From: an uncultured Planctomycetaceae bacterium
Lineage (GTDB): Bacteria; Planctomycetota; Planctomycetia; Planctomycetales; Planctomycetaceae
Assembly: GCA_963815195.1 (NCBI GenBank)
Contig: CAWFGE010000013.1
Coordinates: 480,001-544,000 of the forward strand
DNA: 64,000 nucleotides
Reading direction: 5' to 3'
The stretch's first letter is position 1, and each line of letters begins with the position of its first letter. Below, piece after piece: positions 9,116 to 15,260 of the stretch. The position numbers and the translations under genes were made by a program. The notes under the pieces were generated by a model that was not told the origin of the DNA, did no database searches, and saw only the letters and a program-made list of their open reading frames with translations.

Positions 9116-10711
9116 TCAAGCGGGTTTGACGTGCGGGTCGCCGGCTTCGACGACGAAGGACGCCCGTGTGGAACACTTGCCGCCCGGCTTTTGAATATCG
9201 TCGACCACCACGTAATCGCTGGTCCAAGTCTCCGGCGTGACGCGGCAGCGGACGTAGCCCCGCTCGCGGTTGTGGAACTTGACGCAGGGATTGTCCGCGA
9301 GCAGTTTTTCGAGATCGCGCGGTTTGTCCTCGCCGTTGCCGCCGCTGCTGATCGATGTGCCCACGAACTCGGTGGCGACGACGGCTTCGCCGGGTTTCCG
9401 GTCATCGATGCGGAGTTCGTTGACCCAGTTGGAATGAATGTCCCCCGTGAGCACAACGGGATTGGGCACCCGCCGCTCGGCGATGTACTTCATCAACTGC
9501 ATTCGCTCGTAAGCGCAGCCGGGCCATTGATCCATCGAATACACCGGCGGCTCCATGCCCTTCGCGAAGCCGACGAGGCCCATCATCACCTGCTGGGCGA
9601 GCACGTTCCACGTCGCTTGGGACGCGATCAGCGATCGGTCCAGCCAGTCCCGCTGTTTGTCTCCCAACAACGAATTGCCGCGGTAGAGGGCCGCATCGTT
9701 CAAGGGCGATTTCTTGTCGCCGTTGGGCTGATCGGTGCGGTATTGCCGGGTGTCCAATACGAAAAAGTCGGCGAGCCGGCCGAAGGGAGACCGGCGGTAA
9801 AGCTGCATGTGCGGTCCCTTGGGCAGCGAACGCCGGCGGAGAGGCATCATCTCGTAATACGCCTGATACGCATTGGCCCGCCGGATAAGATAATCCACAG
9901 GGTCGGCATCAAGCTCTTCGGAAACATCTCCCGCGCAATTGTTGTCGAACTCATGATCGTCCCAGGTCAAAAGCCACGGGCATTTCGCGTGCATGCCGTG
10001 GAGCAAGGGGTCGGCCCGGTACTGCGAATGCCGGACGCGGTAATCGCCCAGCGATTCGAGTTCCGGGCCGAGGTGCGTCCGCACCTTGCCGTTTTTGCCG
10101 GAGGCGTATTCGTAGATGTAATCGCCCAGATGGATCACCAGGTCGAGGTCGTCTTGGGCCATCTGCTCGTAGGCGGTGAACAGGCCCTGCTCGAAATTCT
10201 GGCAGGAGGCGAAGGCGAATTTCAGTTCTCCCGGGAGCTGAGCCGGGCTGGGGAACGTGCGGGTGCGGCCGATGGGACTCTCCGCATCCCCGGCCCGGAA
10301 ACGATACCAATACCAGCGGTCCGGCTTGAGGCCTTCGACTTCGACGTGAACCGAATGTCCCAACTGCGGCGTGGCCAGGGTCTTGCCGGAAGCGACGGTT
10401 TTCTTCATCGCGTCGTCTTCTGCCACTTCCCACTTCACTTCGACCGCCGAGGGCGGCATGCCGCCGTGGGGATCGAAAGGTTCGGGAGCGAGCCGGGTCC
10501 AAATCACCACGCCCCGGCTCCAGGGATCGCCCGATGCGACGCCCAGGGCAAAGGGTTCCTTCGGAAAATTGGGGATCGCTTCGGCCATCGCCGCGCGGTT
10601 CAAAAGCGGTAGCGAAGACAGCGCGGCCCCGTAGCCCAAAAACAACCGCCGGCTGATGCCCCCTTCATAACGCACCGCTTCGCGAAGATTCCGCAGATCG
10701 AACATCGTCAA
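9116..10711 (-). CDS. phoD: Alkaline phosphatase D family protein, Tat-exported
   Basis: SRRLFL Tat motif; FALGVASGDP, HLGDYIYE, TWDDHE, LDTRQYR, LTGDIH. Confidence 0.93.
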   Translation of the reverse strand: MTMFDLRNLREAVRYEGGISRRLFLGYGAALSSLPLLNRAAMAEAIPNFPKEPFALGVASGDPWSRGVVIWTRLAPEPFDPHGGMPPSAVEVKWEVAEDDAMKKTVASGKTLATPQLGHSVHVEVEGLKPDRWYWYRFRAGDAESPIGRTRTFPSPAQLPGELKFAFASCQNFEQGLFTAYEQMAQDDLDLVIHLGDYIYEYASGKNGKVRTHLGPELESLGDYRVRHSQYRADPLLHGMHAKCPWLLTWDDHEFDNNCAGDVSEELDADPVDYLIRRANAYQAYYEMMPLRRRSLPKGPHMQLYRRSPFGRLADFFVLDTRQYRTDQPNGDKKSPLNDAALYRGNSLLGDKQRDWLDRSLIASQATWNVLAQQVMMGLVGFAKGMEPPVYSMDQWPGCAYERMQLMKYIAERRVPNPVVLTGDIHSNWVNELRIDDRKPGEAVVATEFVGTSISSGGNGEDKPRDLEKLLADNPCVKFHNRERGYVRCRVTPETWTSDYVVVDDIQKPGGKCSTRASFVVEAGDPHVKPA

Positions 10712-10848
10712 AAAGTCCTTATGAGTTAGCAGCGGTTCAGAAATTAGCCGCAGGGCGCTAGCCTGGGCTGTTAAAAAATTGGTATTGAAGTCTAAAAACG
10801 CGGGTTCTGGCTTGCGCCACCTTTGTTCTCGTTTTTTTGGAAAGCATT

Positions 10849-11042
10849 AGGGCCGAAGGCCCGGCTCTCTGTCAGCCCAGGGCCAGCGCAGCGCCGCCCT
10901 GGGTTACGGATGATCCATGAAACGCAAGCCCCACGGGGGCGGCCCCTCTCGCCACGGAACAAGGCATCGCGCATTTCCGATTTCGGGCCGCCCCGTTGGG
11001 GCTTCGGCATTTTGCTCGTTCCCGTTCCCAGGGCTGCGCCCT
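10849..11042. repeat. REP-like hairpin cluster, continuing at 12700-12731 on the far side of the IS110
   Basis: AGGGCCGAAGGCCCGGC..TCAGCCCAGGG at 10849 is inverted relative to CTGGGCTGAC..GCCGGACCTTCGGCCCT at 12700-12731; internal GCCCC/GGGGC stems. Confidence 0.7.
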
Positions 11043-11176
11043 TATAGGATTTGCTGAGGGATGGATCGGCCGCGGGAGAGGGCGGGGGGACGCAAGTCTC
11101 TCCCCACGGACTCTTCCGCGCCGGAGCCGATCCAGCGCCGTTTTTTTCCTGTTTTTCCAGCCCCAACTTTGAGAGG

Positions 11177-11358
11177 ATCAAAATCAGGCACGCGTCGCCC
11201 CGCTACGAATCGTGCGCCCCATCGCTTCAACGATTGAGCCCAGACTTTCGAGCGGGACGATGCTCTTGGGAACCAACGAATCACTCCAGATGATGACGCC
11301 AAAACGTCTCGGACTATAAGGTTTTCGCCCGCTCCCAAGATCGCGTGCCCTTTTTGAT
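11177..11358 (+). ncRNA. Putative IS110 bridge RNA with target-binding and donor-binding loops
   Basis: Closing stem 11177-11194/11342-11358; target arm 11195-11260 with TGCGCCC and AGCCCAG; donor arm 11264-11340 with CAGATG and CTATAAG; guides match target CTGCGCC-CT-GGGCT and donor CAGATGT-CT-TATAG. Confidence 0.8.
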
Positions 11359-11389
11359 TGTGTTTCACTTTAACAGGAGACGATCCCCC

Positions 11390-12673
11390 ATGCACTCGAA
11401 TTTGCTCGACCCCAATGCCTGTGTGCTGATCGGCCTCGATTGGGCCGACCGCGAACATGCCGTCTGCCGGCTGCTTCCCGACGGCGGAACCGAACACCGG
11501 CAACTCGAACACACGCCCGAAGCGATTGCCGACTGGCTCGCCGGCCTGCGGAAGCAATTCCCCGGTCGCCCGATTCGGATCGCGTTGGAGCAAAGCCGCG
11601 GCGCGCTGATGAACGCGCTCCGCCGTTTCGCCGACCTGGAACTCGAACTGTATCCCATCAATCCCAAGCAGCTGGCCCGCTATCGGGACGCGATTCATCC
11701 TTCGGGAGCGAAATCCGATCCAGACGATGCGCAGCTCTTGGCCCGCTTTCTGCAAAACCATCAGGAGCAACTCCTCCCGTTCGTGGCGGACGATCCCGAA
11801 ACCCGCCGCCTGGCCGAGTTGTCCGAACTTCGCCGCAAGCTGGTCGATGACCGCAAAACCCTTGTGCAGAAGCTCGAAGGCACGCTCAAGCTGTATTTTC
11901 CGCAACTGCTCGAATGGTGTGCCGGCAAGAGTCGCCAACCCCTGTTGCTCGCCGTGCTTCGCCGCTGGCCGAGCTTGGGCGATCTTAAGCGGGCTCATCC
12001 CAAAACGCTGCGCACGTTCCTCGCCGAGCATGGCCTGCGGAACCCCGACCAGCAAACCGAGTGGATCGACAACGTCCGCCCCGCCACCCCGTTGACCGAG
12101 GATGCCAGTTTGATCGAACCCCGCGCGATGTACGCCCAAAGTCTCGGCCGGCAAATCGAGGAACTGAACGAGGCCATTGCCAAATTCGAGAAGCAACTGG
12201 ACGAGGCGACCACCGCGCATCCCGACCACGAACTGTTCCGCTCGCTGCCCGGTGCCGGCGACGTCCTCACGCCGCGACTCATCGTGGCGATGGGCTCCGA
12301 CCGGGACCGCTACCAAGACGCCGGGGACGTGCAATCCAAAAGCGGCATCGCCCCGATCACCAAGCAAAGCGGGAAGACCCGGCTCGTGTTGTCGCGAATC
12401 GCCTGCCCCAAATTTCTCCGGCAGACATTCCACGAGTTCGCCGACCAGGCCCGCCGCTGGAGCGATTGGTCCCGAGCGTTCTATCAAATGAAACGCGCGG
12501 CCGGCATGAGCCACCACGCCGCGGTCCGCGCCTTGGCCTTCAAATGGATTCGCATCATCTTTCGGATGTGGCAAACCGGCACCCCTTACTCGGAAATGAA
12601 GTACCAGGAACAACTCACAATCAGAAACAGCCCCGTCTGGAATTTATTGGAAACAACAACAGAAACCACCTGA
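11390..12673 (+). CDS. IS110-family recombinase/transposase (DEDD RuvC-like + Transposase_20 domain)
   Basis: IGLDWA (D), IALEQS (E), KSDPDDA (DD), SLPGAG, GIAPITKQSGK (catalytic Ser region); AGGAGA RBS at 11375-11380. Confidence 0.95.
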   Translation: MHSNLLDPNACVLIGLDWADREHAVCRLLPDGGTEHRQLEHTPEAIADWLAGLRKQFPGRPIRIALEQSRGALMNALRRFADLELELYPINPKQLARYRDAIHPSGAKSDPDDAQLLARFLQNHQEQLLPFVADDPETRRLAELSELRRKLVDDRKTLVQKLEGTLKLYFPQLLEWCAGKSRQPLLLAVLRRWPSLGDLKRAHPKTLRTFLAEHGLRNPDQQTEWIDNVRPATPLTEDASLIEPRAMYAQSLGRQIEELNEAIAKFEKQLDEATTAHPDHELFRSLPGAGDVLTPRLIVAMGSDRDRYQDAGDVQSKSGIAPITKQSGKTRLVLSRIACPKFLRQTFHEFADQARRWSDWSRAFYQMKRAAGMSHHAAVRALAFKWIRIIFRMWQTGTPYSEMKYQEQLTIRNSPVWNLLETTTETT

Positions 12674-12680
12674 AACCCAC

Positions 12681-12701
12681 TTGAAAAAACCTCAGATGTC
12701 T
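12681..12701 (+). promoter_or_regulatory. -35 half (TTGAAA) of the IS110 circle-junction promoter
   Basis: Joining right end to left end through CT gives TTGAAA-17 nt-TAGGAT (-10 half at 11045-11050). Confidence 0.7.
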
Positions 12702-13145
12702 GGGCTGACATCGGGCCGGACCTTCGGCCCTTTTTCTCAAATTTGAAACAGTTGAATTTACGAACGGTCGAAAAGCTGCGCAAAGACAAATCGTCGTCAA
12801 CACCAAATTTTTAAGGGCCCAGCGCTAGCCCCGGTTCACTGGGATAACCGGACGCTAGCACATTCCGGCTGTGATTGAAAAGTTGCCTGGATGAGCCGCA
12901 GGGCGCTACCGTGAAACAAAACTCCTACTAAAAAGTGTAGCGGGGCTTGATGAAGATACAATGAACGGGGTGCAAAGAGTTCGTCAAACCCCCGGGGCGG
13001 CGAAATGACCAATGAATGAATGACCAAAACTTGAAACATGCAACTGGAAACTGCCGGACAACGGATACGGACCAATGGCAGAATCCGCCGGATTTGCTAC
13101 ATTGCCGGGGGATTGTCTCTCTTGGTCCTTTTGCTTTGAATTGCC

Positions 13146-15260
13146 ATGCCGCCCGAACCGAATCGATTCTTCAATCGCGAACTGAGTTGGTTGGAATTCA
13201 ATCAGCGGGTGCTCGACGAGGCCCGCGACGCCTCGATTCCGCTCTTGGAACGGCTGAAATTCCTGGCGATCACCGCGTCCAACCTGGATGAGTTCTTCAT
13301 GGTCCGCGTGGGCGGTTTGCAAATGGTCTCCGCCCAGGGCAGCACCAAGACCGATCCCTCCGGGATGACCGCCGACGAGCAGCTCGACGCCATCAGCCGC
13401 CGAACCCACAAAATGACGGCCGACCAGTGCAAATGCTTTCTGGCCGACCTGGAACCCGCCCTTGCGCAAGCGGGCTTCCGCCGATTGGCGGGCGATCAAC
13501 TCACCCGGGAGCAACTCCAATTTGTTGAGCAGTTGTTTGCGGAAGAGATCTCGGCCGTGCTCTCGCCGATGGCGGTTTCCGCGGACGAGGAGTTCCCGCT
13601 GTTGGGGAACCAGACGCTCAACGTCTGCGTGCAGCTCAAGCCGAAGGCCAAGGATGAGGCCCCGCGGTTCGCGCTGATTCCTTTTGGGCTGTACTCCCGC
13701 CGGTTTATCACTTTGCCCATGCAGGAGCGGAGCGATCAGTACGAATACATTCTTCTGGAAGATGTGGTCAACCTGTTCGCCGGCCGGTTTTTTCCCGGCG
13801 AGCCGGTGGTGGAGTGCGTGCCGTTTCGCATCACCCGCAATGCCGACCTCAGCGTGCGCGAAGATCTCGCCGCGGATTTGATGGTCAGCATGGAGGAGAT
13901 CCTCGATGCCCGGAAACAAAGCGCCTGCGTACGCCTGGAGATTTCTGACAATTGCACATCGGCGACGCTCTCGTTTTTGCGGAACACGCTCGGCGTCCTG
14001 GAGAACAGCGTGTATGCCTCGCCGGGGCCCTTGGATCTGGCGGCGTTCATGCGGCTGACCGATGTCAAAGGCTTCGATCCCCTGAAGTACGAGTCCTGGC
14101 AGCCGCAGCCTTCGCCCAACGTCGATCCGCAAACCAGCCTGTTTGAAACGCTCCGCGACCGCGACGTGCTGCTCTACCATCCCTTCGAGAGCTTCGAACC
14201 GGTGCTCCGGCTTATCGAAGAAGCCGCGGCGGATCCGGACGTGCTGGCGATCAAGCAGACCTTGTACCGCACGAGCCGCGACAGCCCCGTGGCCGCCGCC
14301 TTGATGCGGGCGGCGGAGAACGGCAAATACGTCACCGCCCTCGTGGAGCTCAAAGCCCGCTTCGACGAAGCCCGCAACATCGAATGGGCGAAGAACCTCG
14401 AGCAAGCCGGCGTGCAGGTGATCTACGGCGTCAAAGGCCTCAAGACGCACGCCAAGATCTGCGTGATCATCCGCCGGGAACCGCAGGGCATCAAACGCTA
14501 CGTCCACTTCGGGACCGGCAACTACAACGAGCAAACCGCCCGGCTCTACACCGACGCCAGCCTGATGACCGCCGACGAAATCCTCGGCTCCGATGCGACC
14601 GCGTTCTTCAATGCGGTCACCGGCTATTCGCAGATTCACGAATTCCAAAAGCTCGCCGCCGCCCCGATTAGCCTGCGCGACAAACTACGGGAACTGATCG
14701 AGGGCGAAATCGAGCGGAAGAAACAAAACCAGGCCGCGAAAATCGTGGCCAAAATGAATTCGCTCGCCGATCCGGCACTGATCGATGCCCTCTATGCCGC
14801 GTCGGAAGCCGGCGTGAATGTGGAACTCAACATCCGGGGCATTTGTTGCCTCCGGCCGGGCGTGAAGGGCCTCAGCGAGAATATCAAAGTTGTGAGCATC
14901 ATCGACCGGTTTCTGGAGCACAGCCGGATCTTTTCGTTTCATCACGGCGGGGACGATGTGGTGTATATTTCCAGTGCCGACTGGATGCCCCGCAACCTCG
15001 ACCGCCGGGTGGAGCTATTGGTCCCCGTCGAAGACAACAGAGCCCGCCAGCAGTTGCTCCGGGTGTTAAGTTCCTCGATGAAAGACACGGTCAAAGCCCG
15101 GCGGCTGACGGCGGACGGGCAGTACAAAAAAATCCGCTCCAAAACCGCCCACCGCAGCCAGGAAAGCCTGTATCAAGCCGCCTGCCGGGCCACCGCCCGC
15201 GCCGCCAAGACCCAAGCCGTCGCCTTCGAACCCCACCGCGCCCCGGAGGACAACGGGTGA
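13146..15260 (+). CDS. ppk1: Polyphosphate kinase 1
   Basis: FFNRELSWLEFNQRVL, LLYHPFESF, VELKARFDE, KTHAK, FLEHSRIF, SSADWMPRNLDRRVE. Confidence 0.97.
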   Translation: MPPEPNRFFNRELSWLEFNQRVLDEARDASIPLLERLKFLAITASNLDEFFMVRVGGLQMVSAQGSTKTDPSGMTADEQLDAISRRTHKMTADQCKCFLADLEPALAQAGFRRLAGDQLTREQLQFVEQLFAEEISAVLSPMAVSADEEFPLLGNQTLNVCVQLKPKAKDEAPRFALIPFGLYSRRFITLPMQERSDQYEYILLEDVVNLFAGRFFPGEPVVECVPFRITRNADLSVREDLAADLMVSMEEILDARKQSACVRLEISDNCTSATLSFLRNTLGVLENSVYASPGPLDLAAFMRLTDVKGFDPLKYESWQPQPSPNVDPQTSLFETLRDRDVLLYHPFESFEPVLRLIEEAAADPDVLAIKQTLYRTSRDSPVAAALMRAAENGKYVTALVELKARFDEARNIEWAKNLEQAGVQVIYGVKGLKTHAKICVIIRREPQGIKRYVHFGTGNYNEQTARLYTDASLMTADEILGSDATAFFNAVTGYSQIHEFQKLAAAPISLRDKLRELIEGEIERKKQNQAAKIVAKMNSLADPALIDALYAASEAGVNVELNIRGICCLRPGVKGLSENIKVVSIIDRFLEHSRIFSFHHGGDDVVYISSADWMPRNLDRRVELLVPVEDNRARQQLLRVLSSSMKDTVKARRLTADGQYKKIRSKTAHRSQESLYQAACRATARAAKTQAVAFEPHRAPEDNG

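Follow-up and report, generated by a model that had tools for sequence, protein, structure and literature searches.

The window analysed here, 64,000 nucleotides (nt) from an uncultured Planctomycetaceae bacterium (contig CAWFGE010000013.1, positions 480,001 to 544,000), contains a 1659-bp insertion sequence of the IS110 group at positions 11043-12701 of the forward strand. We consider it very probable that this element works like IS621, with a two-loop bridge RNA encoded upstream of its recombinase gene. The guide, donor and handshake relations that characterize such an RNA hold across divergent homologues with different targets. The original prediction, made from the DNA letters, had proposed the logic of the IS621 bridge-RNA recombinase for this locus, with a CT core and a repetitive extragenic palindromic (REP) target. 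It is supported by guide covariation, fold covariation, the Pfam domains of the recombinase and the repeat that serves as target.

The element, its recombinase and the fold of the predicted bridge RNA

The element is delimited by two CT dinucleotides, one directly outside its left tip (11041-11042) and one forming the final bases of its right end (12700-12701). The target halves read CTGCGCCCT (11034-11042) and GGGCT (12702-12706), and the donor halves read CAGATGTCT (12693-12701) and TATAG (11043-11047). Joined, they give CTGCGCC-CT-GGGCT as the restored target and CAGATGT-CT-TATAG as the circle junction; all strings and coordinates originally quoted for target and donor are present in the window. 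The left end (LE) of 347 nt and the right end (RE) of 28 nt fit the IS110-group layout, which is described as a long LE and a short RE (PMC11208160). No terminal or long subterminal inverted repeats are visible at the ends by eye, no repeat search having been made.

The scarless empty site CTGCGCCCTGGGCT is present in the bacterium's own genome and also in metagenome contigs, where 1659-1660 nt are skipped. For the latter, contigs of four DNA runs were compared with the window; the runs are metagenomes, and one is possibly the source of the assembly. Contigs with the joints 11040>12700 and 11041>12702 represent empty-site forms. Since the runs are metagenomic and the flank belongs to a repeat with many copies, these joints may stem from another copy of the repeat or from a different organism. 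What they confirm is where the element begins and ends; they are no proof of excision. The element itself was seen at high identity in other metagenome runs.

The recombinase of 427 amino acids (aa) matches PF01548 over the whole profile length (residues 14-171, E = 3.7e-25) and PF02371, the C-terminal Tnp domain with the conserved serine (E = 8.8e-14). Its best relatives of solved structure are ISCro4 (PDB 9t56, 1.3e-9) and IS621 (PDB 8wt6, phmmer E = 1.4e-7). The candidate catalytic residues D17, E67, D110, D113 and S327 fall on the D-E-D-D and Ser positions of these two proteins. The first four correspond to D11, E60, D102 and D105 of IS621 (chain numbering in the structure alignments is offset by 2 from the published numbering of IS621), and S327 lies within KQSGK, which aligns with ESG of IS621 and ISCro4. 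Both IS110 Pfam domains and all five positions thus agree with the DEDD/Ser recombinase that had been predicted. The cluster of exactly this protein has five members in public collections, none of them named.

Upstream of the gene, the minimum free energy (MFE) fold of positions 11177-11358 is a three-way junction of -65.3 kcal/mol (z = -4.72), and none of 200 shuffles was as stable. This agrees with the junction of about 180 nt that had originally been drawn. In both arms, a pair of guides flanks a small hairpin within an internal loop closed by CGAA/UUCG. Loop 1 is closed by CGAA/TTCG at 11206-11209/11247-11250 and has the hairpin ATCG/CGAT at 11221-11224/11231-11234; in loop 2, the closure lies at 11277-11280/11324-11327 and the hairpin, GACG/CGTC, at 11295-11298/11305-11308. 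The guides, hairpins and closures of both loops were found where the original prediction had placed them (TGCGCCC and AGCCCAG in loop 1, CAGATG and CTATAAG in loop 2).

The left target guide (LTG) has the same sense as the target and would pair with its bottom strand. The right target guide (RTG) and the right donor guide (RDG) are each the exact reverse complement of the core CT plus a 5-nt half, so that the predicted full 7-nt right guides are also present. The left donor guide (LDG) had been read as a match of 6 nt; this match probably belongs to a longer, interrupted pairing of 8 nt between CUC-AGAUG and CTCAGATG at 12691-12698. In this pairing, CU (11284-11285), AGAUG (11288-11292) and one C of 11286/11287 would be paired and the other C bulged. 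An extra LDG base, C or A, occupies the same position in the window and in the homologous loci L009, L010, L011, L012 and L036, and the donors all read CCTCAGATG. Its conservation in the six closest sequences suggests a flipped-out base in the guide-donor duplex, and by sequence the bulged 8-nt pairing appears to fit the window and its five closest relatives better than the 6-nt pairing.

To estimate chance agreement, 5000 dinucleotide-preserving shuffles of the 347-nt LE were scored. The four guide matches were reached singly in 443, 127, 764 and 7 of the shuffles; no shuffle reached all four jointly, and none reached their summed length.

One scan of representative genomes yielded 50 loci with recombinase relatives (31-61% identity), mostly from Planctomycetota, Acidobacteriota (Vicinamibacterales, Bryobacterales) and Gemmatimonadota metagenome-assembled genomes (MAGs). 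The closest homologues come from Planctomycetota MAGs. Twelve of the upstream regions could be aligned; their scaffold motifs are conserved, and their first-loop guides vary. RNAalifold predicted 32 pairs in this alignment, 17 of them with compensatory changes. A covariance model built on the alignment was searched against 51 sources, the window included, and gave 36 matches. Thirty-five of these are plus-strand matches immediately 5' of the open reading frame (the window and 34 homologues); a weak minus-strand match in L025 was left out of this count.

In the alignment of 36 rows, which includes the weak minus-strand match, 95.5% of the cells are standard-paired and 24 of the 32 pairs have changed on both sides; in helices 2 and 3 of the target arm, 13 of 15 and 3 of 4 pairs were compensatory. 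No shuffle out of 500 paired as well, and slid partners were paired in 33-42%. The outer stem of the donor arm is absent from the model and was therefore tested by duplex energy in 34 rows (without the truncated L029 and the minus-strand match). Own pairs reached -13.9 kcal/mol versus -6.1 kcal/mol for cross pairs, and none of 2000 permutations did equally well. Thus, folding and a covariance model over homologous left ends, which had been put forward as a check of the RNA, reveal covarying stems.

Guides, flanks and handshake nucleotides across homologous elements

To compare guides with the DNA next to each element, we placed element ends by donor features only, namely the reverse complement of the RDG upstream and the motif CAGAT[GC]-N-C[TC] downstream. 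Host flanks were then scored against the aligned guide columns at 23 loci on the left and 29 on the right. A usable junction was absent in 12 (left) and 6 (right) of the 35 elements, which ended at a contig end or had no motif and were left out of the counts. For the left target, guides matched their own flank at 5.91 of 7 positions versus 2.41 of 7 in cross-pairs (21 distinct guides). For the right target, the values were 4.55 of 5 and 1.68 of 5 (22 distinct guides). In both cases, none of 20000 permutations reached the observed sum. Guides therefore fit their own flanks far above cross-pairs, and the guide-target covariation on which the original prediction had staked its reading is present among the homologues.

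The donor loop is conserved across the elements, as published for the family. Where the RDG varies, it follows the left end: CTGTAAG occurs with TACAG (L011, L012) and CGATAAG with TATCG (L042).

The nucleotides 3' of the right guides show a second, crossed relation. The nucleotide 3' of the RDG forms a Watson-Crick pair with target position 7 in all 23 elements scored (18 G:C, 5 C:G), and the nucleotide 3' of the RTG pairs with donor position 7 in 28 of 30. With the cognate DNA, the same nucleotides pair rarely (3 of 30 on the RDG side; 1 of 23 on the RTG side, counted at the element's own target position 7). By their complementarity, these nucleotides follow the handshake arrangement that Hiraizumi et al. 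2024 (PMC11208158) describe for IS621.

In the account of Durrant et al. 2024 (PMC11208160), a promoter is rebuilt across the RE-LE junction when the ends are joined in a circle. In 29 of 30 right ends from the homologous set, a TTG-type -35 hexamer is located at a distance of 15-17 nt from the tip of the element; in the window, it reads TTGAAA (12681-12686). Once the ends are joined, a -10-like motif, TAGGAT (11045-11050), would face it across 17 nt. Among the left ends, 15 of 22 contain a -10-like hexamer with at least 4 of 6 matches including A2 and T6.

Taking the IS621 literature as a guide, the element would be excised as a circle, which would bring TTGAAA to TAGGAT and cause both the RNA and the recombinase to be transcribed. 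Dimers of the recombinase on each loop would pair the circle junction with the 14-bp sequence CTGCGCC-CT-GGGCT in a REP-like hairpin, and strands would be exchanged at CT.

Two observations on the homologues may be added. Three related elements in one Bythopirellula genome (L017, L025 and L026) carry three different sets of target-loop guides. Seven elements from Vicinamibacterales and other Acidobacteriota (L018, L023, L030, L032, L034, L037 and L046) have a CC core (…TCC|TATAG) and, to match it, GG in both right guides; the donor-loop hairpin of this clade is longer.

Genomic copies, the target repeat and alternative readings

The own assembly (8.9 Mb) contains four full copies of the element at 99-100% identity and one copy with an internal deletion of 302 nt. 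A search of the whole genome with the covariance model detected only these five copies and no second bridge RNA of this type. All five are bounded by the same CTGCGCC-CT ... GGGCT. Their wider flanks differ from copy to copy, indicating that each was inserted separately into a member of a repeat family. When the flanks were searched by BLAST against the own genome, 50 left-flank matches were obtained, which define a REP-like intergenic repeat of about 50 copies. Restoring the empty site places the target within a predicted hairpin, CCCAGGG-CTGCG-CCCTGGG, which is followed downstream by a terminator-like hairpin. Nineteen of the 50 repeat rows are empty N7-CT-GGGCT sites, one with the exact left target and 18 with one to three differences. 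Genome-wide, the uninterrupted 14-mer has one exact occurrence, 16 occurrences with a single mismatch and 90 with two mismatches, all of these sites thus being empty; the five occupied (split) sites are all the exact 14-mer. The REP target that had been proposed is therefore one 14-mer in a REP-like repeat.

Repeat copies comprise several hairpins and a terminator-like end. Some lack the 12-nt target-hairpin segment, with CCCAGGG directly followed by CTGACAT, and others have a longer variant loop, CGGCGCTGCGCTGG, so that the target hairpin is a variable module of the repeat. A stretch of 78 nt elsewhere in the genome (G000:C15:246467-246544, L007) resembles the right end of the element, with 77% identity to its final 80 nt; it could be a remnant, or else the terminal part of a related element.

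The copies bear on the question whether a bridge-type RNA and recombinase are present as a decaying relic that is immobile in this host. This is the alternative that survives best, and we regard it as unlikely. It draws on the damage to the recombinase frame in three of the five copies, which also weighs against an active IS621-like element: a frameshift by +1 nt at window-equivalent position 12498 (L003, C15), one by -2 nt at 11613-11614 (L004, C19), and the 302-nt deletion (L005/L006, C13:1055039-1056395). Only one exact target, moreover, is still empty. Yet the window copy and L002 retain the 427-aa frame with all catalytic positions, so that the frame called intact in the original prediction is one of two such copies among the five. 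The copies are 99-100% identical in spite of diverged flanking repeats, a sign that they were inserted recently and independently of one another. None of the five differs in the bridge RNA region, and the damaged copies could still be mobilized in trans by the intact ones.

Far less probable is that the structured left end serves only as a cis-regulatory leader, acting in translation or attenuation, and that the guide matches are due to chance or represent protein-binding subterminal repeats. The position of the structure would suit such a role, since it stops 16 nt before AGGAG and 32 nt before the start codon and is preceded by a hairpin and a U-tract (11062-11160). Older literature, as related in PMC11208160, attributed expression control to the non-coding ends of IS110 elements, and the donor-loop matches by themselves can be read as internal copies of the ends. 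The target-loop guides, however, match host DNA outside the element and covary with it over 21-22 distinct guide/target pairs. Neither a leader nor a protein site predicts the strand-specific scheme or the handshake covariation without exception in 23 elements, and the shuffled left ends argue against four chance matches.

An element of the IS1111/seekRNA branch, in which the guide RNA follows the gene, is hardly credible: the two branches have both Pfam domains in common, but the 28-nt RE is too short for an RNA, the modelled RNA lies in the 347-nt LE as in the IS110-group layout of PMC11208160, and inspection by eye, without a repeat search, reveals no long subterminal inverted repeats.

The IS621-like bridge RNA remains the preferred reading, and several further findings weigh against it. 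The phmmer alignments of the N-terminal domain are weak (domain i-E 4.9e+02 to IS621 and 0.26 to ISCro4); the DEDD assignment rests on Pfam and motif position. Within the guides, the LTG is unpaired with the core T (C at 11220 versus T) and with position 1 of the left target half (LT). The contiguous LDG match is only 6 nt, and position 7 of the left donor half (LD) is mismatched. Among the homologues, the left target reached 4 of 7 or less in 5 of 23 loci, for example 3 in L012 and 4 in L026, L038 and L042; the misfit of L012 is a one-base register shift. Right-target scores of 3 of 5 or less were obtained in 3 of 29 loci (L021, 1; L024, 2; L009, 3), where the contigs are possibly rearranged or chimeric. 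Permutation controls ignore kinship, and several Vicinamibacterales loci have guide and target in common. A guide-flank signal does not follow from common ancestry of the elements alone, as the flanks are not part of them.

Transcription adds three points of the same kind. The -10-like hexamer of the window matches at 4 of 6 positions, and the consensus does not extend to promoters of the planctomycete type. A sigma-70 scan of the linear sequence gave 0 promoters (0.4 expected). The hairpin and U-tract between the junction and the RNA could terminate junction-driven transcripts. This leader region ends in two U-runs, GUUUUUUUCCUGUUUUUCC. Its fold (11050-11176) is no more stable than shuffles (-53.6 kcal/mol, z = -0.99), and T-rich sequence at its position is only partial in close homologues. 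Possible roles are those of a 5' stem-loop belonging to the RNA and of an attenuator or intrinsic terminator.

Comparison with known systems and further features

IS621 of E. coli (177-nt bridge RNA; PMC11208160, PMC11208158; PDB 8wt6), as portrayed in these sources, resembles the window element in many respects. Both recombinases combine a DEDD RuvC-like domain with a Ser-bearing Tnp domain. Both elements use a CT core that is included in the pairing and a REP-type target, and in both, a long left end encodes an RNA with the target-binding loop first and the donor-binding loop second. The 5' guide of each loop has top-strand sense and the 3' guide is antisense. The handshake nucleotides 3' of RTG and RDG are directed at the non-cognate DNA, and the donor-loop handshake GU stands opposite donor T7, as in wild-type IS621. 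LD position 7, mismatched in the window element, tolerates a mismatch in IS621. In IS621, only circle formation brings the -35 box of the right end together with a -10 box of the left end; the window element has motifs that resemble these boxes.

The two also differ, according to the same sources. The window recombinase is about 100 aa longer (427 versus 326 aa) and distantly related. In the window RNA, a shared stem (P1) closes both arms and so creates a three-way junction, whereas the arms of IS621 follow a separate 5' stem-loop. The natural RTG has 7 nt, whereas the wild type of IS621 pairs 4 (PMC11208158). Both target-loop handshake nucleotides of the window match the donor, and its LTG ends at the core C. 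The apparent 1-nt bulge is in the LDG, in contrast to a discontinuity in the RDG of IS621. Finally, the RNA core is set back from the junction promoter: 134 nt of the left end, with the long leader, come before it.

In a comparison confined to the proteins, the ISCro4 transposase (PDB 9t56) is the best solved match: both domains align, and D, E, D, D and SG are conserved, in 341 aa versus 427 aa. ISPpu10 of Pseudomonas putida (bioRxiv 10.64898/2026.03.19.712850) is an IS110 element whose insertions, in the preprint's account, are all in identical copies of one conserved intergenic sequence, similar to the five insertions of the window element at one 14-mer in a hairpin-forming repeat. An extra structural layer of target recognition is claimed for ISPpu10; here, the predicted target hairpin is what we note in this regard. 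The IS1111 group (seekRNA or right-end bridge RNA) has the same recombinase family and RNA-guided recognition of target and donor. It differs in having the RNA in a long right end and long subterminal inverted repeats, as described in PMC11208160, in contrast to the short RE and upstream RNA of the window.

The mechanism has been known since 2024, and the window element is a clean further example, not a new kind of system. Its description as new in the original prediction holds for an added family member and does not hold for a new kind, thousands of bridge RNAs having already been predicted in the family by Durrant et al. 2024 (PMC11208160). A literature search for planctomycete IS110 bridge RNAs found no paper; it did not cover the supplementary ortholog lists of Durrant et al., which may contain the clade. 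What the element offers is a well-documented natural bridge recombinase, of predicted activity, from a poorly sampled part of the family. Its wiring can be read completely, including target, donor, four guides, handshake bases and junction -35 box, and the 34 homologous RNAs with their different natural guide/target pairs form a resource. The host genome provides a natural read-out of specificity, with insertions at the exact 14-mer and the one-mismatch sites empty. The known mechanism is left unchanged.

For tool builders, a natural 7-nt right guide and a full handshake are features that were engineered into IS621. Judged from its sequence, the element would be a candidate programmable tool, as originally suggested. 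We also considered, as a doubtful but conceivable extension, that it belongs to a clade of its own among the bridge recombinases, with long-form proteins of about 400-430 aa in MAGs of Planctomycetota, Acidobacteriota and Gemmatimonadota and an RNA wired unlike that of IS621. The proposed wiring, equally tentative, would consist of the one-stem three-way junction, the 7-nt RTG, two target-loop handshake bases matching the donor and the LDG bulge. In such a clade, the leader of hairpin and U-tract might gate expression to the circular form. If this is true, the natural "post-handshake" design could recombine more efficiently or specifically than wild-type IS621.

The coordinates of the features are given in Table 1.

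Table 1. Features of the insertion sequence, its predicted bridge RNA and the surrounding repeat, in window positions
Feature	Position	Strand	Details
REP-like repeat, left part	10946..11042	+	LT CTGCGCC 11034-11040; core CT 11041-11042
Left non-coding end (LE), 347 nt	11043..11389	+	starts with right donor half (RD) TATAG (11043-11047)
Leader: long imperfect hairpin (about 11062-11136), then U-rich tract (11142-11160)	11062..11160	+	RNA fold; precedes the two-loop RNA
Bridge RNA gene (predicted), covariance-model match	11166..11358	+	cmsearch 157.2 bits, E = 2.1e-44; structured core 11177-11358
P1 extension, specific to the window	11177-11183 with 11352-11358	+	MFE
P1 closing stem, 5' strand GGCAC	11187..11191	+	pairs with GUGCC 11345-11349; 5 of 5 pairs change on both sides
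Target-binding arm	11192..11263	+	outer stem 11192-11209/11247-11263, terminates in CGAA/UUCG; encloses internal loop and inner hairpin 11221-11234
LTG, UGCGCCC	11213..11219	+	same sense as 11035-11041, i.e., LT positions 2-7 and core C
RTG, AGCCCAG	11237..11243	+	reverse complement of CT+GGGCT (11041-11042 and 12702-12706)
Target-loop handshake guide, AC	11244..11245	+	complements donor positions 6-7 GT (12698-12699), not target positions 6-7 CC
Donor-binding arm	11264..11340	+	outer stem 11264-11271/11333-11340; inner hairpin 11295-11308; MFE, duplex energy and helices 4-6
LDG	11284..11292	+	contiguous CAGAUG 11287-11292 equals 12693-12698
RDG, CUAUAAG	11314..11320	+	reverse complement of CT+TATAG (12700-12701 and 11043-11047)
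Donor-loop handshake guide, GU	11321..11322	+	G11321 complements target position 7 (C at 11040)
Recombinase gene, 427 aa	11390..12673	+	AGGAG at 11374-11378, eleven bases 5' of the start codon
Right end (RE), 28 nt	12674..12701	+	TTGAAA 12681-12686; LD CAGATGT 12693-12699; core CT 12700-12701
REP-like repeat, right part	12702..12750	+	right target half (RT) GGGCT 12702-12706; terminator-like hairpin 12713-12730, then T run

A scan of positions 10500-13300 against the 4227 families of Rfam gave no match at threshold; Rfam 15 may or may not hold a bridge RNA model. A match to RAGATH-31 at 11077-11114, outside the RNA, was far below threshold (24.1 versus 71.8 bits, E = 0.15) and was rejected as a chance hairpin.

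The element is located between a PhoD-like phosphatase gene (9116-10711, minus strand) and a polyphosphate kinase gene (13146-15260, plus strand). The insertion point separates these divergently oriented genes of phosphate metabolism.

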